Shown one piece after another: positions 4,844 through 21,985 of a DNA stretch of 34,255 bases. Where the stretch lies: the NCBI GenBank assembly GCA_013166835.1, contig JABLTI010000031.1, positions 1 through 34,255 of the forward strand, written 5' to 3'. The notes beneath the pieces are model-generated. The model did not search any database and was not told the origin of the DNA. It saw only the letters and a program-made list of their open reading frames with translations. Numbering within the stretch: the first letter of the stretch is position 1; the number at the start of each line of letters is the position of its first letter. The position numbers were made by a program, and so were the translations under genes. This stretch comes from Promethearchaeati archaeon. GTDB taxonomy: Archaea > Asgardarchaeota > Heimdallarchaeia > JABLTI01.

Positions 4844-5611
4844 TTACAAGAATAATGTTTCAGTAGATAATGCTACACAGCCATTTTGAGTCATTTCGAA
4901 AGGTCTTCGAACTAATTCATGGTCGATTCCTCTCATCTTTCTAATGTATATACTTCTTAACAATCTTTGATTTACCTCTTGAATATCAACAACTATTACA
5001 CCAGAAGCCATGAATTCTTCAACACCATAACGAGAAATTTCTCCGCTTTGAGACATCTCACTGGTAACAATGGTTGTGCATTTAAGACTCGACATCACAG
5101 CACTAAGCTTTAAGATTTCTCTTCGAATTCGCATTTCACTTTCTAGAGATAAAGCAAGAGCTGTTAAAGAATCAATAACTACTCTTTCAGCGCCAAGTTC
5201 ATCAATTAATGCGATAAGTGTTGTTAAAAGATCATCAATTTCTAAACGAATACTATACTTCTCTTTTGAAGCCACACCTGCACGCATAGAGAAACCATCA
5301 ACAAGTGCAAGAAGATTCTCTTTTTCCAAGCTTTCTAATTTCCAATCATAACTTGCGAAGTTTTGTCTCACAGTTTTGGGGCTTTCATCAAAGGTAACAT
5401 AAATTCCTGGATCGCCATGATCTAAGACACCACGATAGATAAATTGGGTCGCGAGTGTGGTTTTCCCTGCACCAGCTGGTCCACTTAATAGTATAGTTCT
5501 ACCTTTTGGTAATCCCCCATTTAACATTTTATCTAATCCAGGTATCCCAGTTTTTACTCTGGCTATTTGACTCATCTTTCTAGCTCCAACATTCTTAACG
5601 TTCACTGACAT
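4844..5611 (-). CDS. Single-domain KaiC/RAD55 family RecA-superfamily ATPase
   Basis: TGIPGLDKMLNGGLP, Walker A GPAGAGKT, RVVIDS, YGVEEF, IRKMRG. Confidence 0.92.
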   Translation of the reverse strand: MSVNVKNVGARKMSQIARVKTGIPGLDKMLNGGLPKGRTILLSGPAGAGKTTLATQFIYRGVLDHGDPGIYVTFDESPKTVRQNFASYDWKLESLEKENLLALVDGFSMRAGVASKEKYSIRLEIDDLLTTLIALIDELGAERVVIDSLTALALSLESEMRIRREILKLSAVMSSLKCTTIVTSEMSQSGEISRYGVEEFMASGVIVVDIQEVNQRLLRSIYIRKMRGIDHELVRRPFEMTQNGCVALSTETLFL

Positions 5612-5636
5612 AAAATTCTTATGGATTGTAATAATT

Positions 5637-6296
5637 TCAACAAATTATTTCTGTTCCTATAAATTCTTTTCCTTCTAATAGATTTTCTATACGGTCATGA
5701 ATCAAACCATTGATAATATATGCCTTAATGTTTTTTCTTTGCAAAATTGTAGGTGTAATGTTATCTAAAGGACTTGTTTTCAATTCGAGTAATTCTTGTA
5801 CAGTTATCTTCTTAACTAGTTTATCTTTAACAATTATACCATCTATATCTTTGAGGAAAACTAATTTCTCAGCCATAATTTTTATGGCAATTTCCGTAGC
5901 GATAGCATCACTTGTAGAATTCCAAGTTTTCTCTAAACCACTCTCAGTTCTCATATATTTCATAACTCTAAAGATTGGTAAATTTTCGAAAGTTAAGACA
6001 TTAAAATCCTTAGAAGAGAAATCATGTAAATTTGAATTAGGAATAAATTTCATTAGAAAACTAGCATGTTGCTCCATAGCCTGTATAGCCATCCAATGTG
6101 CTTGTTCATCATCTAAATCATATTTCTCTTGTGTTTCGCGAACAAACTCGGTAAAAAGCCCACCACCGGGAACTATAGCAAAATCCTCTTTGCAGTCAAA
6201 TAGTGAAGATAGAGTTTTTCCCAATTGAACAATTTGTTTGAGGGTTCCTCTTTCAGTAATAGAACCACCAAATTTTATAATTGTATTAATTTTCAT
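5637..6296 (-). CDS. mfnE: Amino-acid-kinase family protein, probable [5-(aminomethyl)furan-3-yl]methyl phosphate kinase
   Basis: IKFGGS, VPGGGLF, AHWMAIQAM, TWNSTSDAIA, KDIDG; ATGA overlap with mfnF. Confidence 0.78.
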   Translation of the reverse strand: MKINTIIKFGGSITERGTLKQIVQLGKTLSSLFDCKEDFAIVPGGGLFTEFVRETQEKYDLDDEQAHWMAIQAMEQHASFLMKFIPNSNLHDFSSKDFNVLTFENLPIFRVMKYMRTESGLEKTWNSTSDAIATEIAIKIMAEKLVFLKDIDGIIVKDKLVKKITVQELLELKTSPLDNITPTILQRKNIKAYIINGLIHDRIENLLEGKEFIGTEIIC

Positions 6297-7378
6297 TCAG
6301 AGCTTCCCTCTGTTTCAATGAATTTTTTCGAGTATAGAACCGCAACTGCGAAAGCACAAAAAGAGTTCAAGGATGATTCATCTAATATATCATCAGCAAT
6401 AATTTGCTCATATATACCATTCATTCGAAGCAAAGAAATCCCAATTGTTTTAGCACCTGAACCAATGAGAATTATTTCAGGATTTAATTCATACATTGCT
6501 CTGAATCTAGTTAAGACATAATCCAAAGCACCTGATAATTTCTCAAATTGCTTTTCTTTAATTTGTCTTGCAATATCTATAATATCATTGTGAGCAAGCT
6601 GGTTACTATCAGAACAAACGATACGTGCTAATCTTGCTTTTGCATTTTCTTTACTAACAGGTTTACCATCAGCAGTATCACCTATGACTTCATCTTCAGA
6701 GATTAATCCTAGAAGTAAGTAGACATCTCCTGTTGTTGCGAATAACTCACTCGCTAACGGTATAATTTCATTTCTCACTTTAACTTCTTGAATAATCGCA
6801 ACAACATTTGTTCTAATTAAACCGGAGTATACTAGTTCTTTGTTAGTTAAACGTTCAAGATCATTTTTTCCTTGCGCAACTATTTTTCCATTAAATATTG
6901 GAGTAAAGTCCGTTGTTGTAGATCCAATATCAATGACTAATGCATTATGATGCTTTATTCCCAAATAGAGCGCTGATGCAACCCAATTCGTGGCAGCAAC
7001 ATTAAGCCAATTTTCTCCAGCTTCTTGCGTAGGTAGAAAACTACCATTTACATCGAGAATAAGCGGTGAGTTCTTTTCATTATCTGAGTGAAAACACTCC
7101 TCAACAAATCCGCAAATGGATTCTATTCCTTCTTTTTTCGTTTGAAAACAATCAGCAAGTTCTGCTGTTGTAACAAAAACCACTTGATCTATTGAACCAA
7201 ATTCCTCGATTAATTTACTCTTTAGTGTCTCAAGAAATTCTGGAAAGGATGTATGATTTTTCCAAATTGGAAAATAATCAGAGCTGGAACTAAGTAATTC
7301 GATTTTTTCTTTCTGAACTTCAATTAAAGCATGTTTAGTATTTGCCCCACCAATATCCAAACCAAGGATTTTAACCAT
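6293..7378 (-). CDS. mfnF: Hydantoinase/oxoprolinase-like methanofuran biosynthesis protein
   Basis: GLDIGGANTK, TTAELADCFQTKKEGI, AATNWVASA, IDIGSTTTD, ELVYSGLIRT, SELFATTGD, RLARIVCSD. Confidence 0.88.
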   Translation of the reverse strand: MVKILGLDIGGANTKHALIEVQKEKIELLSSSSDYFPIWKNHTSFPEFLETLKSKLIEEFGSIDQVVFVTTAELADCFQTKKEGIESICGFVEECFHSDNEKNSPLILDVNGSFLPTQEAGENWLNVAATNWVASALYLGIKHHNALVIDIGSTTTDFTPIFNGKIVAQGKNDLERLTNKELVYSGLIRTNVVAIIQEVKVRNEIIPLASELFATTGDVYLLLGLISEDEVIGDTADGKPVSKENAKARLARIVCSDSNQLAHNDIIDIARQIKEKQFEKLSGALDYVLTRFRAMYELNPEIILIGSGAKTIGISLLRMNGIYEQIIADDILDESSLNSFCAFAVAVLYSKKFIETEGSSE

Positions 7379-7526
7379 ATTTTTTCATATCCTACTAAAT
7401 GTAAAACAAATTCCGAATAATCTTAAATTTAAACTTCTAATAAATTAATTCATAATTAGATATTCTTAACCTCATCTCTTTAGTAAATGTTTTTAATCTT
7501 TGCTGATAAAATCTCATTTGAATACA

Positions 7527-7775
7527 ATGTCTACAGAAAGCTCAGAAGTAATTGGTATAATCCTTGATATGACGGATAAAGAATGCCCTCATGTGCTTTA
7601 TGAGCTTAAAACATCTATCAAGAAAATAAAAGTCGGTGAAATTCTCAAATTAATAACTAATAGACCTAAATCTCTAAAGAATATACCAAAATGGTGTTTA
7701 AATAATAATCATGAGCTCTTTCTAACAGACACCAGTAATGGGAAGTATTTATTTTATATAAAAAGAACGCAATGA
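7527..7775 (+). CDS. TusA/SirA-family sulfur carrier
   Basis: LDMTDKECPHVL...GEILKLITN...NIPKWC...YLFYIKR; ATG 7527 preferred over TTG 7500. Confidence 0.8.
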   Translation: MSTESSEVIGIILDMTDKECPHVLYELKTSIKKIKVGEILKLITNRPKSLKNIPKWCLNNNHELFLTDTSNGKYLFYIKRTQ

Positions 7776-7805
7776 ATAATCTAGTAGTACTGTGGAGTAA
7801 AAAAA

Positions 7806-8297
7806 ATGAGCTATCGTTTAGTTCAAGGAGAATTATCCTTTAAATTTGCAGCAGCACATTTTGTTCTTGGAGACACAGGTTGTGAACGATTACATGGTCA
7901 CAATTATCTAGTTGAAGTACAGATCTACGGTGAGCAAGATGAAGCCAGGAATCTAGTAATTGATTTCTTAGAATTGAAACCTTTTGTAAGAAAATTCGTG
8001 GAAGAGCTTGATCACAAAATACTGTTGCCAACTGAAAACTCCCATCTAACAATAACTAAAAAGAAAAATGAGTTGTTTGTTAATTTCATCCCAAAAAATA
8101 AGAATTATATTTTTCCAGAAAGCGATGTTTCCTTGCTGCCGATTAAAAACACAACCGTCGAGGAATTTGCCCGATTGTTATCATCTAAACTAACTCCCCT
8201 GTTTAGTAAACACCCAAATATTGATGCTATAGAAGTAGGAGTTTTCGAATATAAAGGACAAGGTTGTTGGATGAAGAGAACTAGGGATACTATTTAG
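7806..8297 (+). CDS. 6-pyruvoyl-tetrahydropterin synthase family (COG0720), PTPS-I/III-type motif CExLHGH
   Basis: FAAAHF...GCERLHGHNY...IDF...LDHKIL...TTVEEFA. Confidence 0.88.
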   Translation: MSYRLVQGELSFKFAAAHFVLGDTGCERLHGHNYLVEVQIYGEQDEARNLVIDFLELKPFVRKFVEELDHKILLPTENSHLTITKKKNELFVNFIPKNKNYIFPESDVSLLPIKNTTVEEFARLLSSKLTPLFSKHPNIDAIEVGVFEYKGQGCWMKRTRDTI

Positions 8298-9108
8298 TAT
8301 TTTTTTGATTCAGAAGCTCCTCAAATCCACTCAAAGTTATTTTAGGTATATTTTCTATTTCTTCACCTTGAATTAAGAAATTGTAATATTTGATAGATGA
8401 AAACAAATTAGGGAGCTGTGAGAGAAGATTCTTCGCTATTGTGAACTTGATTAGCTTCCTCTCTGAAGCTTGAAAATCTTTATTTTTACTTTCTGGTTTG
8501 GAAAATTTCCCGACAATTTCACCAAAATCATATCCAATCAAAACTACTATTTCTGCTTGCATATTTGCAGCTAAATAAGCAGCTCGATCCCCATCTGTAA
8601 ATCCTCCCAAATTTTTTACTTTGAAAGTCTCCTTTGTTTGGGTTGTCCCGATAATGCCTTCTTTTGGTATTATGTCAGTAATTTCGTTAATTTTTGAAAT
8701 ATTATCTCCATGAGTATGAACAACTACTATTGAACCATTCTCGAAACTCTTTCTAATTGCTGCTATACTTCCATCTAAATCTGTAATAATGACATCAATA
8801 TCAATTCCAAATTTAAGTAGTGCTTTTGTAGCTCCATCAACAGCAACAATAACTACTTCCCGTCTGAAGTTCTTCACCAAATTGAATAACAGCTCAATAG
8901 AGCTTTCAAGAGATGGGCCTGGTCCAAACAAAAGAACAATCTTGTGTTTTATAATTAATTTTAATTTCCTAAACGTTTTTCGTACGGTTTGATAAGTTAA
9001 TCTCGAATGTAAAACATGAGTTGCTATCAGATCCGTTTTTGCATCAATACTAAGCATTGAACAAATTTGCTCATAATCTTTTTTTCTTAATTGCTTGTAT
9101 TGCTTCAT
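8290..9108 (-). CDS. mptE: 6-hydroxymethyl-7,8-dihydropterin pyrophosphokinase (archaeal, DUF115)
   Basis: GPGPSL, VAVDGAT, ITDLDG, VHTHGDN, NLGGFTDGDRAAYLA, GYDFG, KLIKF. Confidence 0.88.
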   Translation of the reverse strand: MKQYKQLRKKDYEQICSMLSIDAKTDLIATHVLHSRLTYQTVRKTFRKLKLIIKHKIVLLFGPGPSLESSIELLFNLVKNFRREVVIVAVDGATKALLKFGIDIDVIITDLDGSIAAIRKSFENGSIVVVHTHGDNISKINEITDIIPKEGIIGTTQTKETFKVKNLGGFTDGDRAAYLAANMQAEIVVLIGYDFGEIVGKFSKPESKNKDFQASERKLIKFTIAKNLLSQLPNLFSSIKYYNFLIQGEEIENIPKITLSGFEELLNQKNTK

Positions 9109-9213
9109 AAATCATCAGACCGATTGCTTACAGTAACTATTATTTCTTTACTTATTAAAAATAATATTCAAATAAATTATTATGAGGTAATCTGTTATTT
9201 AACTGGGATATAT

Positions 9214-9852
9214 ATGTCAAATACAAATCTTCCCTTTCAAAGTGAAATTATCTATGAAGCAATTATTACTACATATAATCAGCAGAATCAACCAAATGCT
9301 GCTCCAATGGGCTTCTCGATTACTAAAGAAAAACAAGTAATAATTCGTCCTTTCAAAGAATCAGATACGTACAAAAATCTACAAGATCAAAAGAAATGCA
9401 TAGTTAATATCACAAATGATCCAGATCTATTTGTGAAAAGTACTTTGTTCCAAGATTTATTGACTGACGAATTTTATATTAAATCCAAAATAATTAATGC
9501 TCCAATTCTGAAAACTTGTAAAGGGAATCATATAACACTAAAAGTCATAAAAGAAAAGGGTGAAGAAGAGAGGGGAATATTCCATTGTGAAATCATCAAA
9601 GTAGAACTAAGCAGAGAAAATATTCAACCACATACCCGAGCTTTCTCATCTTTGATTGAGATCCTAATTCATACTACTCGAGTAATTCATTTTTCCAAGA
9701 CAAGTGGACTAAGTGATCCGAAAGTCAAACAATTAAGAGAATTAATTGAGCATCACTCACAGATAATAACTCGAGTAACAAATAAAGACTCCCAATTTCA
9801 GGAATATCTTGAGAAAATTCAAGAGAAAATATTCCAAGAAGTAGGGGAATAG
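9214..9852 (+). CDS. DUF447 family protein (FMN-binding split barrel-like; methanopterin-associated)
   Basis: YEAIITT...PNAAPMG...PFKESDTYKNL...VNIT...RAFSSLIEILIHTTR; ATG 9214 preferred because the longer frame overlaps the divergent mptE start. Confidence 0.8.
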   Translation: MSNTNLPFQSEIIYEAIITTYNQQNQPNAAPMGFSITKEKQVIIRPFKESDTYKNLQDQKKCIVNITNDPDLFVKSTLFQDLLTDEFYIKSKIINAPILKTCKGNHITLKVIKEKGEEERGIFHCEIIKVELSRENIQPHTRAFSSLIEILIHTTRVIHFSKTSGLSDPKVKQLRELIEHHSQIITRVTNKDSQFQEYLEKIQEKIFQEVGE

Positions 9853-11023: not shown

Positions 11024-11731
11024 ATGACAATAAAAATCGTTCAAGGAACACCAAAGAAGCTATACAAAGAAGTTTCACCCATTGTGAAAGATTGCTTCGA
11101 AGGTGTTTGGACAGAAGAAGACTTGTTACAATTATTAGATTTACCACACGAGAATAATCTCTTTCTGGTAGCATACGATAAAGACAAACCCGTTGGATAT
11201 GCTTTTGTTGTTGCAGATTTTGATGAATCTGTAGATACAAAAATCGCAACCATCCAAGAAATAGGTGTTCTTCCAGAATTCCGCGAATCCGAAATCGCAG
11301 AAGATTTCCTTGACAAAGCCATTCAATTTTCTAAAGTTACTAAAGCAGAATATCTCGAGCAAGTAGTGTCCACTATAGATCAATGGTTAATCCCTGCTTT
11401 CGTAAAGAAAAATCTCAAACCAAGTGAAATAAAAGCTGATAGAGAAATTTCCTCCTTTAATGAAGCAAAATTAATTCTTACTAATATTAAGAAGAATTCT
11501 AAAATCACTGTTTTGATGAATCAATTATTCTTTGAGGATAACGATAAACTAGAGACCCACATAGTAGAAAACGAAGCGGATTTTGAACTCATCAAAAGAA
11601 ATGATCCAATTGCTTTTGGATCAATTATTTCAATAGACAAGGCTGATGATTTAGAAAACACACTTACTGAATTAAAGAACCTAGATATTGAATGGGATGA
11701 AATTGGTATAACATTTAACTATATGTTATAA
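11024..11731 (+). CDS. GNAT-family N-acetyltransferase with an extra C-terminal domain
   Basis: FLVAYDKDKPVGYAF...IQEIGVLPEFRESEIAEDFL (motif A, glycines degenerate); AAGGAG SD. Confidence 0.72.
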   Translation: MTIKIVQGTPKKLYKEVSPIVKDCFEGVWTEEDLLQLLDLPHENNLFLVAYDKDKPVGYAFVVADFDESVDTKIATIQEIGVLPEFRESEIAEDFLDKAIQFSKVTKAEYLEQVVSTIDQWLIPAFVKKNLKPSEIKADREISSFNEAKLILTNIKKNSKITVLMNQLFFEDNDKLETHIVENEADFELIKRNDPIAFGSIISIDKADDLENTLTELKNLDIEWDEIGITFNYML

Positions 11732-11748
11732 AATCTAAAATTGTATTC

Positions 11749-12432
11749 TCATTTGATTTCATTTTCTAATCTTTGAATGGTTTTCCAATAGACTCGTACA
11801 ATTTTCTTTGGCCAAGAATGATTTTTCTTGTAATATTGTTTCAACCAATTAATGGTTTTTTTATCATTAGTACTACCAGAACCAAAATCACCGTATTCTC
11901 TTCTGATTTTTCTTAATTCTTCTAAAGAAGCATTTCTAGCTAAAACTGACCCTGCACCTACAGCTATGAATTCTTTCTCTGCTCTTGGTGTTACAATTAA
12001 TTTAATATTTCGAGTTGAATTATTTTCTTTCAATAAAGAACGCAATTTACCTACTGCTTGAAAATTATCAACTTGGTATTCTGCGATTTTAGGTTGTTTC
12101 TTAGCAATATCTTCAATAGCTCGAAAGAATGCATATGCTTCTGCTTCGTCCATTGACATACCGTTTTTATTGTAATTAGTAAGTACCTCTGCAGAGAGCG
12201 TCTTAATGCTCCAAGCGAGAGATTCTTTCTTAATTAATTCCGCATGAGCTCTGATTTTATTATGAGAAGAATAATTCTTACTATCTTTTATCCCGATTCT
12301 TTCGAATGTTTGTTTTACAGAATCATTTATGGCACAAGCTCCAATTGTCATTGGTCCTATTATCAATCCTCTACCAGCTTCATCTGCCCCAACGACAATT
12401 TTTCCTATCTTTTCCATAATATCATCAACCAT
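11749..12432 (-). CDS. rnhB: Ribonuclease HII (type 2 RNase H), atypical substrate-recognition residues
   Basis: GADEAGRG, GP, KDSK, VDN, AVGAGSVLAR, DFGSG, VRVYWKT. Confidence 0.88.
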   Translation of the reverse strand: MVDDIMEKIGKIVVGADEAGRGLIIGPMTIGACAINDSVKQTFERIGIKDSKNYSSHNKIRAHAELIKKESLAWSIKTLSAEVLTNYNKNGMSMDEAEAYAFFRAIEDIAKKQPKIAEYQVDNFQAVGKLRSLLKENNSTRNIKLIVTPRAEKEFIAVGAGSVLARNASLEELRKIRREYGDFGSGSTNDKKTINWLKQYYKKNHSWPKKIVRVYWKTIQRLENEIK

Positions 12433-13651
12433 TTTTTCTTAATTTCGCAATGAACTGCCCAGGTGTGTCATGCACATCCGGATAGAAATATTGTAGATAT
12501 TCTGATCCTGGGAATCTAGCTGAGCATTTCACTCCAAAGAACAATTCTTGTTTCTCTATGGTAAGATTTAGTTCTTCGATAGCAAATTGAATATTGCCTT
12601 CGTTTTCTGCTGGATCTAAACTATTTGTTGTATAAAATATCGTTCCACCAGGTTTTAGCAACCTTGCAGCTTGTATTAAGTATCTTCTTTGTCTCCTAGA
12701 AAATTCGATTATTTGGTTCTCTCTAATCATCTCAAAGATTTTAGGTCTCAATCCCATATCTGAAGATGGTGGATTGGCTATAATCAAATTAAAGGTCTCA
12801 TCTTTATTATACTTCTTTGCAAACGCGCTAAGATTCAGATTTTCCCGAACAATAGGGGCCTTATACATTCTTAATCGCTTAATGTTCTCATTGAATTTTG
12901 TTAATTTATGAGCTGTACTTCTTTGAGCAACAATTCTCGAATCTTTTACTTCAGAATTCCTTTGCCAAATATGTGTTAAAATTTCTCCAGTATCAGAGTT
13001 CATATCTAATATACGATCTTTTGCCTTAAGATTCACAGAGGAACCTATGAGCATGCTAGGGATTGACTGAGGAATGAATTGCCCACGAAGGTATTCCTTC
13101 AATCCATTTATACTTGGTATTTTATATATGCTCTCAGTGATTTTTATTGCAATGCCTTTTTTCTTTTCCTCAAGTTCGTTTATATTCATCATTAAAATTC
13201 CATTGCCTACAACATCTCCTCTTTTATCGAGCAATGAAATCTCATCACCAATATTAAGATCATCTGTGTATTCAAAATCATTAGACCCTACTCCCACACC
13301 GATTAAGACGCTATTCAATGGTCGTTTATAATTTAAGGTAATCGTTTTCTTTTTTCTTGGGATTACTTCATTTTTAGAAATTTCAAGTAAAATAGCTTCT
13401 TCAAAGTCAGGATGTTGTTTAGCAACAATTTCTTTTTCATTTAATGCTTTGATTAATTTAGAAGCAGTGGTTATTTGTGTGTTTACTCTTACTGGTAAGG
13501 ATTGGGTGTGCTCTTTAAGACTAGCAATTAAAGCACTAGTTCTTTGTAGTCCATACGTAAAGCTTAAGCGTTTAATCAACTCAAAATTAAATTGGTATTT
13601 TTCAATGAGTTGCTCGATTTCGTCATTAATACTCAGAGTAATTCCCTTCAT
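12425..13651 (-). CDS. RsmB/NOP2/NSUN6-like protein with PUA domain; catalytic motifs degenerate
   Basis: VRVNT, PUA insert, QSIPSM, GLRPK, LKPGGTIFYTTNSL..AENE, FYPDVHDTPGQFIAKLRK. Confidence 0.88.
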   Translation of the reverse strand: MKGITLSINDEIEQLIEKYQFNFELIKRLSFTYGLQRTSALIASLKEHTQSLPVRVNTQITTASKLIKALNEKEIVAKQHPDFEEAILLEISKNEVIPRKKKTITLNYKRPLNSVLIGVGVGSNDFEYTDDLNIGDEISLLDKRGDVVGNGILMMNINELEEKKKGIAIKITESIYKIPSINGLKEYLRGQFIPQSIPSMLIGSSVNLKAKDRILDMNSDTGEILTHIWQRNSEVKDSRIVAQRSTAHKLTKFNENIKRLRMYKAPIVRENLNLSAFAKKYNKDETFNLIIANPPSSDMGLRPKIFEMIRENQIIEFSRRQRRYLIQAARLLKPGGTIFYTTNSLDPAENEGNIQFAIEELNLTIEKQELFFGVKCSARFPGSEYLQYFYPDVHDTPGQFIAKLRKNG

Positions 13652-13821: not shown

Positions 13822-14556
13822 ATGGTGCCGGTGTTAAAGAAAGACAAATTCGCGAAATTAATTTCCTATTGTATAGGTAAATCAATACCAATGGATTATC
13901 CTTTGAGAAGAGTAGTCGAGGAAGAGGCTGCAAAGAAAAAATTTGTTCCATTAGGATCATTCTTTCTAAGAGGGTTAGACATGGATGGTGTCATTGCACT
14001 CACACTTCCTAAGAAAGAGTCCTCAGACGGATTAACTCATTACTTATTCGTTTGGTTTTCAAAAGAAGATGTTTCTGTTTCAAGTGAAAAAGCAAATTCA
14101 ACTTTACAAATAAAATCTGTAGATCCTATGCATTTCTCCTTAAGAGGTTCTCCTGAAACATTTGTTAAGGTGATGGGAGAAAGTTCAATGATTCAAAGTA
14201 TCCTGGTTGATTTAGTTGATGATTTGAAATGCCTTGAAAGCTTTACAATTTACAATAAAGAAGGATCCCAAAAGGATGCCCAAGTAGAAATTCCTTCAGA
14301 TCTAATAGGCTCGAGATTTATTGTGCAGACTCTGGTTTCAGAAGAAGCTACCAGTCCAACTCATGGAAAATTTGAACGAATGGAAATAGCTCTGCCACAA
14401 TTAATTGATTTAGCAAATTATTCAATTATGACTGGACTGAAAATGTTCGGTCCAATGAATGAATTCACAAATTTTTGTGCTCAATGCGGACAGAAATTAC
14501 CTCCAGGTAAAAGTGCTTTCTGTATTCATTGTGGTGCCAATTTAGATAAGGAATAA
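13822..14556 (+). CDS. Hypothetical protein with C-terminal zinc ribbon
   Basis: FCAQCGQKLPPGKSAFCIHCGANL; GGAGTG SD. Confidence 0.75.
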   Translation: MVPVLKKDKFAKLISYCIGKSIPMDYPLRRVVEEEAAKKKFVPLGSFFLRGLDMDGVIALTLPKKESSDGLTHYLFVWFSKEDVSVSSEKANSTLQIKSVDPMHFSLRGSPETFVKVMGESSMIQSILVDLVDDLKCLESFTIYNKEGSQKDAQVEIPSDLIGSRFIVQTLVSEEATSPTHGKFERMEIALPQLIDLANYSIMTGLKMFGPMNEFTNFCAQCGQKLPPGKSAFCIHCGANLDKE

Positions 14557-14690: not shown

Positions 14691-16619
14691 ATGAAGTTTC
14701 AACTCTCCATCTCTGCTGGTTTTGCTAAGCTAGCAAAAATTAGAAAAGAAGACATAGTTGTTGAAATACCAACCACAATGTCCATTTCTGAGAAAGATGG
14801 TAGTTCATTTTGGAAAATAGGAGAAGAGGATAATTCCGTCATTATGGGTTTACCAACAAGCAGCTTACATCAACAAAAACCTCAAGTTGGAGATGAGGAT
14901 CTAATATTTGTAGCTAATATACTAATGCAACGTTCTCTAAATCCTTCATTGATTGAAAAACAGTTAGCTAAGACTAAAGAGTCGATGATGGAATACTTGG
15001 AGACTATTCCAAGAGAGAAAGCAATCGTTCTAATCCAACCAACTGATTCTCCTGGAATTTTAAATCAAGTTTTACAATTGATTAAAGATTTTGAAATAAA
15101 AAATATCGCCATAACGAATTTGTTACCATTGCTTAATAATCAAAGACAAGCAGTAAGTTTTCTTGCTGGAATAAATTCATTTCTTCCTGTAGATTCAATA
15201 CTTTACCTTTTATCCCCAGTCCCTCACACCTTTTGGCCAATCTTAGCGTATGCAGGGATTAATGTCTTCAATAATGGATTTGCAGAAATAGCCTCAAAGC
15301 AATCAATGTACTTAACAGATTTCGGAGGTATTGATTTAGTATCTTCTTCAGAGAAGCCTTGTTTTTGTGAAGCATGCAACAGTGTTGATCAAATAATTGA
15401 ATTGTTGATGCCTGATCCTAAGAATTCGGATCAATCTCTATTAGAGAAGCACAATAAGTGGATAACAACTAAAAAAATACGTGAAATCAGAAATGCTCTG
15501 AGAAATAGTGATTTGAGAAGTTATGTTGAACAAATGATTCACTCAAACGTATTTAGTGGGGCAGCATTGCGATTATTAGATAAACAACATAATGATGAGA
15601 TTATTTCAAGAACTCCGACTTGGAAAACAGCTCTCATAAAACACATCACTGAGTATAGTTATTATCGCCCGGAAATCCAAGAATTTCAGCAAAGAATTAG
15701 AGATAGATATCAAATTCGGGGGAGTAAGAAGGTCGTAGTAATATTTCCTTGCTCTGCAAGAAAACCATATTCTTTCTCAAAAAGTCATGGGAAATTCTTG
15801 AACACTTTAGGTTCTATTTCAAATAATAAAAGAGGTTATATTCAAGAATTAATCTTAACCTCTCCGTTAGGAGTAATTCCAAGAGAATTAGAAATGGTTT
15901 ATCCCGCTGCCCATTATGATATACCAGTAACAGGCGACTGGAGTCACGAGGAAAAAGAAATAGCTGTAAAACAATTAACTACTGTTCTTTCTGAAGCAAA
16001 GACCTCAAAATTATCAGTCTTAGCTCATGTAAGCAATGAATACGTTGAACTCTGTAAAGAGGCAGAAAAACAACTTAAGATGAAATTCAAATATACGACC
16101 TCTGGTGATAAAACAACTTCCTCAGAAAGCTTATCTTTGCTTTTCGATGAACTTAATTCAATTTTGAAAGATTTAGAACCTGTAACCTATAGATCGGATA
16201 TGGAACTTATCCAAACAATTGCTGATTATCAATATGGTTCTGGAATCGGTCAAGAAATGTTTAAGGAAAAATGTAGAATAAGAAGTAAACCAAATCAACC
16301 ACAATTTATTATGCAGGACAAGAAGCAAATTGGAGTTATCCAACCGACAACAGGAAAATTATCCCTTACATTAGAAACAGGAAAAACCTTAGCAGAAGAA
16401 GAGAAGTATTTTGTTTTGTTTGATGATGAAGAATTGGAAGGCTCCACACTTTTTGCAGTAGGTGTTGTTGACGCTGATCCTCAAATAAGACCAACTGATT
16501 CCGTAGTTATTCTGAATAAGAAAAGAGAACTCGTAGGAGTTGGAAATGCTATAATTTCTGGAAAAGATATGAAAGAAACAAGGCGTGGACCTGCTGTAAA
16601 GATAAAGCAAAAAGTTTGA
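14691..16619 (+). CDS. arcS: Archaeosine synthase subunit alpha (lysine transferase; degenerate TGT barrel + DUF5591 + PUA)
   Basis: CFCEAC...HN zinc site, PCSARKPYSFSKSH, TSPLGVIPRELEMVYPAAHYDIPVTGDW, IADYQYG, C-terminal PUA GVVDADPQIRPTD. Confidence 0.92.
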   Translation: MKFQLSISAGFAKLAKIRKEDIVVEIPTTMSISEKDGSSFWKIGEEDNSVIMGLPTSSLHQQKPQVGDEDLIFVANILMQRSLNPSLIEKQLAKTKESMMEYLETIPREKAIVLIQPTDSPGILNQVLQLIKDFEIKNIAITNLLPLLNNQRQAVSFLAGINSFLPVDSILYLLSPVPHTFWPILAYAGINVFNNGFAEIASKQSMYLTDFGGIDLVSSSEKPCFCEACNSVDQIIELLMPDPKNSDQSLLEKHNKWITTKKIREIRNALRNSDLRSYVEQMIHSNVFSGAALRLLDKQHNDEIISRTPTWKTALIKHITEYSYYRPEIQEFQQRIRDRYQIRGSKKVVVIFPCSARKPYSFSKSHGKFLNTLGSISNNKRGYIQELILTSPLGVIPRELEMVYPAAHYDIPVTGDWSHEEKEIAVKQLTTVLSEAKTSKLSVLAHVSNEYVELCKEAEKQLKMKFKYTTSGDKTTSSESLSLLFDELNSILKDLEPVTYRSDMELIQTIADYQYGSGIGQEMFKEKCRIRSKPNQPQFIMQDKKQIGVIQPTTGKLSLTLETGKTLAEEEKYFVLFDDEELEGSTLFAVGVVDADPQIRPTDSVVILNKKRELVGVGNAIISGKDMKETRRGPAVKIKQKV

Positions 16620-16640
16620 AATAAAACACATTGAGAGTGA

Positions 16641-17768
16641 GTGATTATTATGCTAGACACAAAAGGAATTCTTTCAGAACAAATTTGTTCCCTTAAGAAA
16701 AAATCACTGAAGAAACGAAAGACCAGGGATTCAGGTAAAGCAATAGCTAGCTGGATAGAAGATGATCGCTTAATTACCGGTCCAGGTAAGGCACTGGTTA
16801 TCATTCTCAATTCTCAAGGGTGCAATTGGGGTTTAGGTGTCGATGGTGGTTGTAGTATGTGTGGCTATTCAAATGAGACTTCTGCAATTGATATTTCAGC
16901 TGATGATCTCATAGCTCAAGTTAATAATACCTTGCCAAAATTTTCCAAAAAAGAATTTCAATCCATTAAAATCTTCAACTCGGGTAGCTTTCTTGATACT
17001 AATGAAATTCCAATAGAAGCACAAACTGAAATCTTAGGCATGATAAATGAGTTTGAATCTGTTTCCGAGGTAATTATTGAGTCTAGACCTGAATACGTTT
17101 CTCGAAAAACCTTGAAGATTTTAAGAAAAACATTGGATCAAAGTAAAGAATTAGAAATTGGGATAGGATTAGAAACAAGTAATGATCTTATAAGAATTAA
17201 TAATATAAACAAAGGATTTCTTTTTGAAGATTACAAAAATGCCGTGAAGAGTGCTCTCTCAGAAAATACAAGAGTTAAAACCTATCTCTTACTAAAACCT
17301 CCTTTTCTTACTGAAAAAGAAGCAATAAAAGACACAGTGCAATCTGCAATTGATGCTATTAAAACTGGTTCTAGGTCAATCTCAATAAACCCTATAAACG
17401 TTCAATCGGGAACTCTCGTTTATGACTTGTGGAGAAACGGGATCTATCGCTCGCCTTGGTATTGGACTCTAAAAACTGTACTTTTGAAAATCTGGAACCA
17501 AATTAAGAAACAAAAACTAACTGAAAAAGTGGACAGAATTTTGAGTGACCCGTCAGGTGCAGGAACCCAGCGCGGAATACACAATTGCTCAAAGTGCAAC
17601 AAAGATTTCATTAAAGCCTTAAGGAATTATTCTGTGAATCAAGATTATACAATTCTAAACAAAATAACTTGTTCTTGTCAAAATCTTTGGCTAGAGCTTA
17701 TTAGGCAAGAAGAAGCATCTCGAGATTTTTCCTTAATGAGAGTTGAAAATCCAAGAAACCTCTTGTAA
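16641..17768 (+). CDS. raSEA: Archaeosine biosynthesis radical SAM enzyme RaSEA (synthase subunit beta)
   Basis: GCNWG-x4-GCSMCGY, KIFNSGSFLD, IESRPEY, IGLET, INKG, YLLLKPPFLTEKEA, RGIHNC; directly after arcS; alt. ATG at 16650. Confidence 0.9.
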   Translation: MIIMLDTKGILSEQICSLKKKSLKKRKTRDSGKAIASWIEDDRLITGPGKALVIILNSQGCNWGLGVDGGCSMCGYSNETSAIDISADDLIAQVNNTLPKFSKKEFQSIKIFNSGSFLDTNEIPIEAQTEILGMINEFESVSEVIIESRPEYVSRKTLKILRKTLDQSKELEIGIGLETSNDLIRINNINKGFLFEDYKNAVKSALSENTRVKTYLLLKPPFLTEKEAIKDTVQSAIDAIKTGSRSISINPINVQSGTLVYDLWRNGIYRSPWYWTLKTVLLKIWNQIKKQKLTEKVDRILSDPSGAGTQRGIHNCSKCNKDFIKALRNYSVNQDYTILNKITCSCQNLWLELIRQEEASRDFSLMRVENPRNLL

Positions 17769-18493: not shown

Positions 18494-18949
18494 ATGCCGT
18501 TTGAAATCGATTTTGAAGATCCAAGAATAGGATTTGCCTCAGCACATTTCATTATTGGTCATGATAAATGTGGCTGCCTACATGGCCATAATTATTTCAT
18601 CAAAGTGAAAATAAGTGGAGATATTAATGAGCAGCATATGGTTCTTGATTATGGAATTCTAAAAGAGGAATTAAAGAAACTAGTAAAACCTCTAGATCAC
18701 AAAGTTTTGATTCCTTCAAATGCTGATGGCTTAGTAATAGAAACGAAAGAAGATTCCATAGAAATTACTTCTTGTGATAAACGATATCTGTTACCTGCTG
18801 AAGATGTACATCAATTACCAGTTCCCGCAACAACAGCGGAAGAGCTTGCTAAATATTTCCATCAAGAGCTGCAAAAAATCTGGCCAAAGTTCAAAATCAA
18901 AGTAACAATAGAAGAAGCTCCGGGAGCAAGTGCAACATATACTAAGTAA
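18494..18949 (+). CDS. queD: 6-carboxy-5,6,7,8-tetrahydropterin synthase (PTPS-I, Cx3HGH)
   Basis: FASAHF...KCGCLHGHNY...LDY...LDHKVL...TTAEELA; last gene of the archaeosine cluster. Confidence 0.88.
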   Translation: MPFEIDFEDPRIGFASAHFIIGHDKCGCLHGHNYFIKVKISGDINEQHMVLDYGILKEELKKLVKPLDHKVLIPSNADGLVIETKEDSIEITSCDKRYLLPAEDVHQLPVPATTAEELAKYFHQELQKIWPKFKIKVTIEEAPGASATYTK

Positions 18950-19024
18950 TCACAAAAATAACACGAGATAATTATTATAGTTTTAAACGTAAAGTAAATG
19001 TAATACATATTTTAGGTGTAATTG

Positions 19025-21985
19025 ATGGTCTCCGAAAGAGATGAAGCTAGTTTCTATCTGGAATACAAACCAAAGTATAAAGTTTTTCATGAATTAATGA
19101 CCAAACGAATGAGTAATGTCTTACTTGTCTCCAGTATTTATGATAGCTTTATGCTTGAAGAAGATGGACGATTATCAGATCAAATTTATGAAGAATTTCA
19201 GAATTTAAACTTACGAACTTTACCTCAAATTACCAGAGTTTCTTCTGCTCAAGAAGCACTAGAAATATTAAATTCACAACAATTCGATTTAGTTATAACA
19301 ATGCGACGTTTGGGTGAAATGGATGCATTTTCTTTTGGGAAAAATGTTAAGGAACTTCAAAATATCCCAGTTATTTTGCTTCTCACAAGTGTTGTTGAAA
19401 TAAATTATCTACCTGATAAAGAGAAACAATTTGGTATCGATAGAGTTTTTGTTTGGAATGGTGATTCAAAAATATTCGTAGCAATAATTAAACATCTTGA
19501 AGATAAATTGAATGTCGAAAAAGACACTAAAACTGGCGATGTAAGAGTTTTTATCTTTGTAGAAGATTCCATTAGATTCTATTCATTATTTTTACCCGAA
19601 CTATATAGCGAATTAATGCGTCAAACACATCGTTTGATAATAGAAGGTACAAATGATTTTCAAGATTTGTTAAAAATGAGAATTCGTCCTAAAATACTTC
19701 TTGCTTCTTCATATGAAGAAGCAATGGATCTTTTCGAAAAATATCAGAAAAATGTTATGGGTGTTATATCTGATATAGAATTCCCAAAAGATGGAAAATT
19801 AAACAAAAATGCTGGTTTCTTATTCGTAAACAAAATTGCTAAGAAAATAATAAATTTACCAGTAATTCTACAATCCTCTAAAGAGCAATATAGTAAGAAA
19901 GCTATAGAAATGGGATATTTTTTCAATCATAAACGTTCACATGGTATGATGTGGGACTTTCGTAAATGGTTATTAGATTCCGTAGGTTTTGGTGATTTTA
20001 CTTTCAAAAACGAGAAGAAAGAAATCGTTGGAAAAGCTAAAGATATAATTAGTTTCTATGAGCAGATTAAATCTATTCCAATTAAATCCCTAATTTATCA
20101 TGGTAAAAGTGATCATTTCTCAAATTGGCTTTCTGCTAGGGGAGAATTCGAGATCGCAAAGAAATTGAAACCTCGAAAGGTTTCCGAATTTACTCAAGAA
20201 GAATTACGAGAATTCCTCCTAAATACGATTAATGAAGTAGTGTTAGAAAAAACAAAAGGAATAATAAACGACTTCTCAAGAGAGAATTATAATCAAGATA
20301 TGCTTTTTTTAAGACTACGACCAGGGTCTTTAGGTGGTAAAGGCAGAGGTTTAGCATTTCTTATGTTTCTACTTAATTCTTTTCAAATACAAGACGAGTT
20401 TAAAGAAACCACAATTGAGATACCTAGAACTTGTGTAATCGGAACAGATGAATATGATAAATTTATGGAGGAAAACAATCTTTACGATTTTGCATTATCA
20501 AACGTCTCTGACGAAGAAATAAAGAAGAAATTTACAAATTCTAAATTATCAGATAGTATTCGATCTGATCTTGAATTCCTTTTACAATATTGGACAAAAC
20601 CACTGGCAATTCGGTCATCAAGTTTGTTAGAAGATTCAGCATATCAACCATTTGCAGGTATATTTAGTACCTTGATGATTCCAAACAATAATAATAAAGC
20701 AATTAATTTTGCTCAATTATGTACAGCAATAAAACTTGTATATGCATCTGTATTTTTGAAAGTAGCTAAATCTTATGTAGAAACAATTAGCCAAACAGTA
20801 GAAGAATCTAAGATGGCTGTTATAATACAAGAAGTAGTTGGGAAAGAACATAATGGTCGATTCTATCCTGATTTTTCAGGAACAGCTTCATCATTTAATT
20901 ATTATCCATTTGTGGATTTTATGAAGCCTGAGGATGGAATAGCACATTTAGCGCTTGGTTTAGGTCGATTAATTGTAGAAGGGTTTGAGTCATTTCGTTT
21001 TTGTCCAAGATATCCTAAAAGCAATTTCTATTCTACACCGGATTATTTGTTAGATAATAGTCAAAGGGCATTTTTTGCAATAGATCTTCAACAGAAGAAA
21101 TTTGATATTTTAGTTGATGATCCTTTCGTTACAAAATTCGATTTCGATGCTGCAATTAAAGATGAAACACTTCTTAATATTGCAGACACCTATGATTTCA
21201 ATTCGGAAACACTGAATATGGGTTATCATGGAACGGGATCTCCTGTAATTACATTTAGTAAACAATTAAAATTAACCACTATACCACTTGCAGAAATTGT
21301 AACTAAAATACTTGCAATTGGTGAACAAACAATGGGTTGTTCTATAGAAATAGAATTTGCTGTGAATCTTAAAGAGAATAAAAATGATAGAGATAAGTTT
21401 AACATATTACAAATAAGACCATTTCTTCAACAAGAAATAATGATTTCGGATGAAATTGAGACATATGAAAGACAACAACTACTTGCCTATTCTAATCATG
21501 TTTCTGGCAACTTATTTAGTAATGATATTTCAGATATTGTGTTCGTCAAACCTGAATCTTTTGATAACTTGAAAACACTTGAAATTCTAAAAGAAATAGA
21601 CAAATTAAATTCCCAATTAATTGCAGAAAAGAAGAATTTCTTACTAATTGGTTTCGGTCGATGGGGGACGGCAGATCGTTTTCTTGGCATTCCAGCGAAA
21701 TGGAATAATATCTGTGGGGCTAAGACAATTATCGAAGCAGGTTTAGAAGACTTCCAAGTTGATTTCTCTCAAGGAAGCCATTTCTTTCACAATATTGTAA
21801 CATCGAATATTGGATATCTCCATATTAAATACAATGACTTACAACACTTTATTGATTGGGAGTGGCTTGAGAATAAAAAAGTTGAAAGCAAACTAACTTT
21901 TGTTAGTCATATTAGATTAAAAAAACCATTAACTATTAGAATTAATGCTAAAAGAAAAGAAGGTATGATTATAAAACCATCATAG
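19025..21985 (+). CDS. Receiver-domain / PEP-synthase(PPDK)-like ATP-grasp fusion protein
   Basis: Two REC-like segments (FDLVIT; VEDS...VISDIEFP...ILQSS); PPDK_N motifs LGGKGRGL, AIRSSSLLED, FAG, IEIEFA, LQIRP; C-terminal GRWG...SQGSHFFHN. Confidence 0.85.
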   Translation: MVSERDEASFYLEYKPKYKVFHELMTKRMSNVLLVSSIYDSFMLEEDGRLSDQIYEEFQNLNLRTLPQITRVSSAQEALEILNSQQFDLVITMRRLGEMDAFSFGKNVKELQNIPVILLLTSVVEINYLPDKEKQFGIDRVFVWNGDSKIFVAIIKHLEDKLNVEKDTKTGDVRVFIFVEDSIRFYSLFLPELYSELMRQTHRLIIEGTNDFQDLLKMRIRPKILLASSYEEAMDLFEKYQKNVMGVISDIEFPKDGKLNKNAGFLFVNKIAKKIINLPVILQSSKEQYSKKAIEMGYFFNHKRSHGMMWDFRKWLLDSVGFGDFTFKNEKKEIVGKAKDIISFYEQIKSIPIKSLIYHGKSDHFSNWLSARGEFEIAKKLKPRKVSEFTQEELREFLLNTINEVVLEKTKGIINDFSRENYNQDMLFLRLRPGSLGGKGRGLAFLMFLLNSFQIQDEFKETTIEIPRTCVIGTDEYDKFMEENNLYDFALSNVSDEEIKKKFTNSKLSDSIRSDLEFLLQYWTKPLAIRSSSLLEDSAYQPFAGIFSTLMIPNNNNKAINFAQLCTAIKLVYASVFLKVAKSYVETISQTVEESKMAVIIQEVVGKEHNGRFYPDFSGTASSFNYYPFVDFMKPEDGIAHLALGLGRLIVEGFESFRFCPRYPKSNFYSTPDYLLDNSQRAFFAIDLQQKKFDILVDDPFVTKFDFDAAIKDETLLNIADTYDFNSETLNMGYHGTGSPVITFSKQLKLTTIPLAEIVTKILAIGEQTMGCSIEIEFAVNLKENKNDRDKFNILQIRPFLQQEIMISDEIETYERQQLLAYSNHVSGNLFSNDISDIVFVKPESFDNLKTLEILKEIDKLNSQLIAEKKNFLLIGFGRWGTADRFLGIPAKWNNICGAKTIIEAGLEDFQVDFSQGSHFFHNIVTSNIGYLHIKYNDLQHFIDWEWLENKKVESKLTFVSHIRLKKPLTIRINAKRKEGMIIKPS

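Follow-up and report, generated by a model that had tools for sequence, protein, structure and literature searches.

Comparison with described NSUN-family proteins

The closest described relatives of the protein reported here are two NSUN6 enzymes. One is the P. horikoshii transfer RNA (tRNA) 5-methylcytosine-72 (m5C72) methyltransferase PhNSun6 (PH1991, structure 5zvd), for which 13 cofactor-pocket residues have been listed and the backbone NH of Y41 has been proposed as the reader of N73 (PMC6393295). The other is human NSUN6 (structures 5wwq-5wwt and 9imb), whose functionally tested residues were taken from PMC5499824. In NSUN6, a motif IV Asp>Asn change on its own abolishes binding of S-adenosylmethionine (SAM), and vertebrate NSUN7, a member of the NSUN family, is maintained by selection although it neither binds SAM nor has m5C activity (PMC12804707). 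E. coli RsmB acts as a chaperone of ribosomal RNA (rRNA); when its nucleophile is mutated but SAM is still bound, the protein stays trapped on RNA and does harm (PMC13674486). Here we describe P0001, a pseudo-NSUN6 protein of 408 amino acids (aa) encoded on the minus strand at positions 12425-13651 of contig JABLTI010000031.1 (34,255 nucleotides (nt), hereafter called the window). The window belongs to assembly GCA_013166835.1 of a Promethearchaeati archaeon of the Heimdallarchaeia (3.56 Mb, 33.7% GC, 85% complete). As judged from the sequences, P0001 belongs to a real pseudoenzyme family that is old and conserved.

The open reading frame of P0001 ran through 408 codons without interruption, as a reading made from the letters of the window alone (the sequence-only reading) had stated, and the frame was confirmed. 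The true start may be a CTG at 13636, because some orthologues start at the matching MS and residues 1-4 were of low confidence. P0001 consists of N-terminal helices, an RRM/ferredoxin-like motif, a PUA insert and a Rossmann core without catalytic or SAM-binding residues. An RRM/ferredoxin-like motif together with a PUA domain inserted in the RsmB/NOP Rossmann core is the architecture of the NSUN6 subfamily, and PhNSun6 has the same N-terminal extension, RRM, PUA insert and core. P0001 matched PF01189, PF22458 and PF01472 and stayed under all NCBIfam RsmB/NOP cut-offs. The closest solved relative by sequence was PhNSun6 (E value 4.5e-42), with human NSUN6 next. An AlphaFold model built with 25 orthologues reached a predicted local distance difference test score (pLDDT) of 91.9 and a predicted template modelling score (pTM) of 0.89. 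In a fold search with this model, ranks 1-10 were all NSun6 structures; the top hit was PhNSun6 (template modelling score, TM, 0.78/0.83), and human NSUN6 has the same fold (TM 0.72-0.76). P0001 is a member of the NSUN6 subfamily by fold and descent.

Three degenerate motifs were found on the minus strand at the positions given by the sequence-only reading. In motif I, DMNSDTGEIL (12977-13006), G214 and K215 of PhNSun6 correspond to E223 and I224. In motif IV, ANPPSS (12761-12778), the Asp is Asn293 and the Cys is Ser296. In motif VI, YTTNSL (12617-12634), the nucleophile Cys is Asn343 and is followed by a clade-wide S-x-D-P-x-E motif. Alignment with human NSUN6 gave K248>I224, D266>R244, D323>N293, C326>S296, C373>N343 and F458>Q399, in agreement with the earlier statement that both catalytic cysteines and the SAM loop had been lost. 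The acidic residue said to be missing at the end of beta-2 was indeed replaced, the residue aligned with D266 being the Arg of VAQRS. The replacement of F458, the Phe that stacks on the cytosine, is a further loss that the earlier list of motifs did not contain. Among the 13 cofactor-pocket residues of PhNSun6, only M217, G222 and P295 were identical in P0001, and R238 corresponded to K249. Compared with PhNSun6, P0001 lacks both Cys, K215, G214, D233, D260, D277 and Y304. The equivalents of human K192, G193, P206 and S223 were kept (K165, G166, P179 and S199, respectively), while those of R126 and Y131 were lost along with the six residues above, and P0001 has no Lys-rich loop. None of the sequence features of an active RNA m5C methyltransferase (motif VI Cys, motif IV DxPC, and motif I PGGK with the acidic residues) was present in P0001. 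The absence of methyl-transfer and SAM-binding residues supports the prediction that P0001 is catalytically dead.

The same losses were found throughout the family. The motif census covered 65 such inactivated ("dead") copies, from 55 of the 57 Heimdall carriers and 10 of the 12 Njord carriers. Close orthologues that retain both cysteines would have pointed to recent decay or to a sequence error, and the nucleophile Cys was kept in 0/64 dead copies. The motif I Lys was kept in 0/65; at motif IV, Asp was found in 1/65 and Cys in 4/65, never both. The D266-equivalent was acidic in 6/65 copies, and F458 was kept in 5/62.

The PUA domain (about residues 100-178; 13118-13354, minus strand) was retained as a fold and matched PF01472 at 24.6 bits, slightly under the cut-off of 24.8. 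The sequence-only reading, which had listed the PUA insert as kept, therefore stood for the fold, but the CCA-binding residues were eroded (PhNSun6 N98>Y108, Q107>I117 and Y112>G122).

P0001 resembles NSUN7 in working by the same pseudoenzyme principle. However, NSUN7 retains the motif IV Cys (LPRCS) and is inactive through one Asp>Leu change, whereas in P0001 the whole site is gone. P0001 also carries a PUA insert and is placed with NSUN6, and both observations argue against orthology with NSUN7. The two pseudoenzymes presumably arose independently, the tree having no NSUN7 row. E. coli RsmB offers a parallel, showing that an NSUN-family fold can remodel RNA independently of any benefit of the methyl mark (PMC13674486). 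RsmB itself, unlike the dead NSUN6, is an active enzyme whose release depends on the catalytic cycle. The nearest active relative is an NSUN6 of Ca. Asgardarchaeum/Asgardarchaeia (L157, P0047), the sister of the dead clade. It shares R28, F31, E311, D346-P347 and an Lhr neighbour with the dead clade and retains intact DMCAxPGGK, DPPCS and YxTCT motifs. No biochemical characterisation of this active sister was found in the literature searched.

Retention, distribution and origin

An identical protein was encoded on 9 contigs in NCBI/Logan/ENA, and orthologues 94-96% identical to P0001 carried the same active-site changes, which argues that no sequencing error is involved. The ratio of nonsynonymous to synonymous substitution rates (dN/dS, NG86) of P0001 against the three orthologues with unsaturated dS was 0.136, 0.133 and 0.069. 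The neighbouring genes ArcS and RaSEA gave 0.12-0.14 and 0.10-0.13, respectively (two pairs each). Of seven more distant pairs, dS exceeded 1.7 in five, and the other two yielded no estimate. In 25 orthologues from f1, the family of the window genome, conservation of the former pocket was 0.55 vs 0.62 for the protein average, compared with 0.86 vs 0.53 in 34 active enzymes. A pocket conserved less than the protein average together with a low dN/dS indicates that selection keeps the protein and not the active site. P0001 thus shows what is expected of a pseudoenzyme, namely conservation under purifying selection with an inactivated site.

An explanation by pseudogene decay or by an artefact of sequencing is almost certainly wrong. 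The copy in one Heimdallarchaeaceae genome (G038:C187:4215-5426) has a single in-frame TAA near the C-terminus, and the metatranscriptome signal was too weak to show expression. The signal came from a single metatranscriptome and consisted of three contigs (151-258 nt, depth 2-4; 11273-11530, 12163-12313 and 12358-12508) that were inseparable from DNA. Scanning for sigma-70 promoters yielded no more than chance would (15 found vs 15.4 expected), the model being ill-suited to archaea. Against decay or error stand dN/dS values of 0.07-0.14, full-length frames across two classes and the identical protein on 9 contigs, and on these grounds the explanation was rejected. The sequence-only reading had proposed a dead but retained protein and had suggested a check of orthologues for shared substitutions and a dN/dS well below 1. 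Both were found, and together with the single old clade and the eroded pocket they support the proposal.

A class-wide profile search of all 83 genomes, in which split copies in G055 and G072 were counted, found the dead NSUN6 in 11/12 genomes of f1, 30/31 of f2 (Heimdallarchaeaceae), 12/12 of f4 (one label Kariarchaeaceae), 1/1 of f5 and 3/3 of f6, that is, in 57/59. It was found in 0/22 genomes of f3 and 0/2 of f7. Family f3 is probably Hodarchaeales; the assignment is only probable because one f3 protein is labelled Ca. Hodarchaeota and another is labelled differently. Orthologues of P0001 are labelled Ca. Heimdallarchaeota, one orthologue cluster has Ca. Gerdarchaeota members, and some family members are annotated as 16S rRNA C5-methyltransferase. 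The dead copy was kept even in assemblies of 1.2-1.4 Mb. A full-length active NSUN6 was found in 28/31 f2 and 2/12 f1 genomes, 30/59 in total, and was not found in f3-f7 genomes or in 10/12 f1 genomes. The latter include the source genome, in which the paralogue was looked for and none of full length was found in the 85% complete assembly. The source genome also carries C140 and C222, two further PF01189 genes (RsmB- or Trm4-like) whose cysteines are intact. Altogether, 28 of the 57 Heimdall carriers had no active NSUN6 in their (incomplete) assemblies, and the dead copy is therefore not simply a partner of the active enzyme. As a separate observation, no NSUN6 of either type was found in the 24 f3 and f7 genomes, so tRNA m5C72 may be absent from that lineage.

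A phylum search of 400 genomes, with four candidates scored per genome, found the dead copy in 12/13 genomes of f22, f24 and f25. The labels on f24 and f25 proteins read Njordarchaeales or Njordarchaeota, and in the tree f22 clusters with these two families. The dead copy was the only full-length NSUN6-type gene in 5/5 Njord-clade genomes searched. Motifs were intact in one best match each from f8, f10-f17, f27, f32 and f33, a reading that did not take in f18, f19 and f21. A relatives search with the f1 alignment gave 29 loci, among which Sifarchaeia and other non-f1 loci had intact motifs. No Njord-type dead copy was found in 401 TACK-phylum genomes, where the best match reached 231 bits vs 536-556 for Njord copies outside the model; at this sensitivity, a dead copy as distant as that of f1 would score like active enzymes. 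The top 15 TACK matches all had intact motifs. Matches in the ESM Atlas were generic NSUN6 and GNAT clusters only. Among the active genes, the NSUN6 at L174:1618-2815 (G303, a small complete genome) appears split in two frames of 107 and 298 aa, and other f26 and f27 NSUN6 matches also begin at profile position 106-107.

The main tree (LG+G4, 72 chosen rows, active-site columns removed, the long row P0097 left out) placed 33 dead copies in one clade (bootstrap 99, SH-aLRT 95) and joined this clade with two active Asgardarchaeia sequences at 90/86. A quick C20 tree that included P0097 gave SH-aLRT values of 96 for the dead clade and 80 for the join. A FastTree of 196 rows gave a support of 0.97 unmasked and only 0.47 masked; there too the row nearest to the dead copies was an active NSUN6, and RsmB-like rows lay apart. 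With a Njord-only profile, the Asgardarchaeia pair scored highest among non-Njord rows. R28, F31 and E311 were conserved in the dead clade and its active sister and not in other active enzymes, and an Lhr helicase gene adjoined both the active sister and many f2 dead copies. The active f1 and f2 NSUN6 genes branched away from the dead clade, and eukaryotic NSUN6 did not group with it. The simplest history would be a duplication of NSUN6 in an ancestor of Heimdallarchaeia, Njordarchaeia and Asgardarchaeia and a single inactivation of one copy. Later, many lineages would have lost the active copy, and f3 and f7 would have lost both. Transfer, or an effect of long branches, may lie behind the pattern instead; long branches could inflate the support for one origin, and the bootstrap of the main tree was not fully settled, which weighs against this history. 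The placement of Njordarchaeia is debated (PMC12411855), and the dead clade is one independent character linking them with Heimdallarchaeia, with the reservation that a single gene can move by transfer.

Possible roles of the dead protein

We put at about one in two the probability that the dead NSUN6 is a conserved non-catalytic RNA-binding factor, with a target that is probably other than the canonical tRNA CCA end. Such a protein would help to handle tRNA or ribosomes, as a chaperone or as a placeholder, and its basic surface would hold RNA by shape and backbone, not by reading C72, N73 or CCA. Joint loss of SAM binding and of the nucleophile would avoid the RNA trapping seen in nucleophile-only RsmB mutants; we infer that this trapping by SAM would account for the additional loss of SAM binding in a viable dead copy. 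The RRM and PUA modules were both kept in full-length dead copies, and P0001 has an isoelectric point (pI) of 9.2. In the 25 f1 orthologues, 22 positions were at least 90% K/R vs 14 that were D/E, and nine of the K/R positions (73, 143, 189, 209, 213, 258, 261, 280 and 283) were basic in at most 41% of active enzymes. The PUA Tyr was kept in 10/10 Njord copies. ArcS and RaSEA lie close to the dead NSUN6 in f1 loci, and neighbours in other lineages include L44e, L13e, L15, S14, S8, L6, NOG1, a GCD14-type tRNA methylase and LysRS.

Several observations weigh against RNA binding. Of six tested or proposed tRNA determinants of PhNSun6 that would make P0001 a reader of CCA and N73, five are replaced (E174>G and Y41>P in addition to the three PUA residues above), and only S190 is kept. 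The Pro in place of Y41 has no backbone NH, the group proposed to read N73. The position of human R126 and PhNSun6 Q107 was kept in 0/64 dead copies. Because these 3'-end determinants are lost, the target has probably changed if RNA is bound. Much of the contact with CCA runs through the main chain, however, and the loss of residues may be compatible with CCA binding. With a net charge between -9 and +3, the f4-f6 copies range from near neutral to acidic, and f2 and f4 have lost most K/R positions conserved in active enzymes; RNA binding is therefore perhaps not general, and the protein may serve different roles in different lineages. Housekeeping genes often lie among translation genes, and the scanned neighbours were chosen by eye. 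An acidic protein partner would suit the conserved basic surface equally well. Since f1 has conserved basic residues while the 3'-end determinants are mostly gone and the f4-f6 copies are not basic, a protein adaptor is a live rival.

We regard it as possible, with a good deal less confidence, that the dead NSUN6 acts as an adaptor or scaffold between proteins, perhaps as the basic half of a complex of two dead enzymes. The candidate partner is an acidic GNAT-fold protein (235 aa, pI 4.5) encoded at 11024-11731 on the plus strand. The canonical GNAT acetyl-CoA loop carries the motif R/Q-x-x-G-x-G, and this protein lacks it. Its model (pLDDT 88.8) superposed on RimI (5isv) with a Z score of 16.7 and a root-mean-square deviation of 2.4 over 139 residues, and the protein has about 85 extra residues and a conserved Trp121. 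All 30 of the GNAT-like members examined were acidic (pI 4.1-5.2) and had no R/QxxGxG, and the protein probably represents a second pseudoenzyme family. The GNAT-like family has a distribution matching that of the dead NSUN6, with occurrence in 51/59 genomes of f1, f2, f4, f5 and f6 (with matches in four of these five) vs 0/24 of f3 and f7. Its gene lies one gene off in f1 and directly downstream in 10/12 f4 genomes. In f2 it is present in 28 genomes, in 15 of them no more than about 11 kb away, and it was the sole neighbour common to f1, f2 and f4 in the wide loci compared. The conservation of R28, F31 and E311 would also fit a protein interface. However, the co-absence in f3 and f7 may reflect one or two events, and other genes may share that pattern. 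The linkage may be inherited gene order, since RNA-polymerase-K-like, LysRS and zinc-ribbon genes are also shared by family pairs. The two genes are unlinked in G030 and G036, and the f4 dead copies are not basic. Outside the class, 5 genomes searched with an f1 and f4 model, which had no positive control there, yielded no GNAT-like homologue; three of the 5 are Njord genomes that carry the dead NSUN6. On these data the GNAT-fold protein is a plausible partner. A fuller proposal is unlikely as a whole: that in Heimdallarchaeia the dead NSUN6 and the dead acidic GNAT form a module, a complex in tRNA/ribosome handling, going back to one ancient inactivation shared with Njordarchaeia and lost in Hodarchaeales.

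It is improbable that the old pocket has acquired a new function in catalysis or ligand binding. In f2, f4, f5 and f6, the motif IV Asp position was Glu in 42/44 copies and the nucleophile position His in 43/43 (e.g. L029:1102-2505), unlike in f1; across the four dead groups, S344 did not vary and D346 predominated. The fixed Glu and His may possibly mark a lineage-specific new site in these four families. Against a new activity in general, f1 varies at 293 (N/H/S/Q/D/K) and 343 (N/S/E/R/K/D) and its pocket is under the protein average, the same positions are variable in Njord copies, D346 is also present in the active sister, and by our reading S-x-D-P-x-E resembles a helix cap. METTL14 is an inactive partner of METTL3, and by analogy the dead copy could be an inactive subunit or regulator of active NSUN6. 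Both copies occur together in 28/31 f2 genomes and in G005. However, no full-length active NSUN6 was found in f4 (12 genomes), f5 (1), f6 (3), 10/12 f1 or 5/5 Njord-clade genomes searched, an absence that is family-wide although the assemblies are incomplete. This explanation, which we consider highly improbable, was rejected as a general one because the active enzyme was not found in many carriers. Marginally less probable still is a functional partnership with the overlapping second RNase HII. The two genes were adjoining and co-oriented in all 9 f1 loci long enough, and 9/11 other f1 genomes had two RNase HII matches. However, none of the f2, f4, f5, f6 and Njord loci had RNase HII next to the dead NSUN6, and the majority of those genomes carry one RNase HII. 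It is therefore not the ancestral role; an f1-specific link is possible, and the partnership was rejected as a general explanation.

Neighbouring genes and biological meaning

The conserved gene order in f1 was ArcS/RaSEA, the zinc-ribbon protein, the dead NSUN6, the second RNase HII and then the convergent GNAT-fold gene. In the window, the RNase HII gene (11749-12432, minus strand) overlaps the stop codon of the pseudo-NSUN6 by 8 nt and is a second, f1-specific copy. The second RNase HII of f1 is basic (pI 9.3-9.9) and was the only RNase HII found in the source assembly, so the usual copy is probably unassembled. The zinc-ribbon protein (244 aa; 13822-14556, plus strand) is encoded divergently and has weak homologues near the dead copy in f2 and f6. 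The archaeosine-synthesis pair ArcS and RaSEA follows at 14691-17768 (plus strand), and PTPS/QueD-like genes lie at 7806-8297 and 18494-18949. A link with archaeosine synthesis was dropped, because the proximity of ArcS/RaSEA holds only in f1. A 987-aa protein with receiver-like domains and a PPDK-type ATP-binding domain is encoded at 19022-21985 (plus strand) and is absent at the matching position in G005 and G006. The region 4844-9852 holds a cluster of KaiC-like ATPase, amino-acid-kinase-family, hydantoinase-family, TusA, PTPS, MptE-like and DUF447 genes, which we take to resemble genes of pterin or methanofuran cofactor synthesis. In Heimdallarchaeaceae loci (e.g. L021:691-1275), the dead copy is flanked by an intact GNAT, Ard1-like by our reading, and an Arf-family GTPase.

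No published description of a dead Asgard NSUN6 was found in a literature search that left subscription journals largely outside its scope and did not cover the supplementary files of Asgard genome papers. Modification enzymes that have given rise to pseudoenzyme subunits or RNA chaperones are known mostly in eukaryotes. The family described here, from the archaea that stand closest to eukaryotes, is an NSUN6 pseudoenzyme that contains a PUA domain and has been inactivated more completely than NSUN7. It also flags mis-annotation, since some dead copies carry the 16S rRNA C5-methyltransferase label. If the module of two dead enzymes with one ancient inactivation were true, archaea would offer an example of a gene duplicated and then inactivated in the manner known from eukaryotes. 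It would also be a character of a rare kind, shared between lineages and relevant to the dispute over where Njordarchaeia belong. The presence of the dead copy in 57/59 genomes, compared with 30/59 for the active enzyme, points to a core job. The family, with its active sister as a control, is a natural test of a possible methylation-independent RNA function of NSUN folds.

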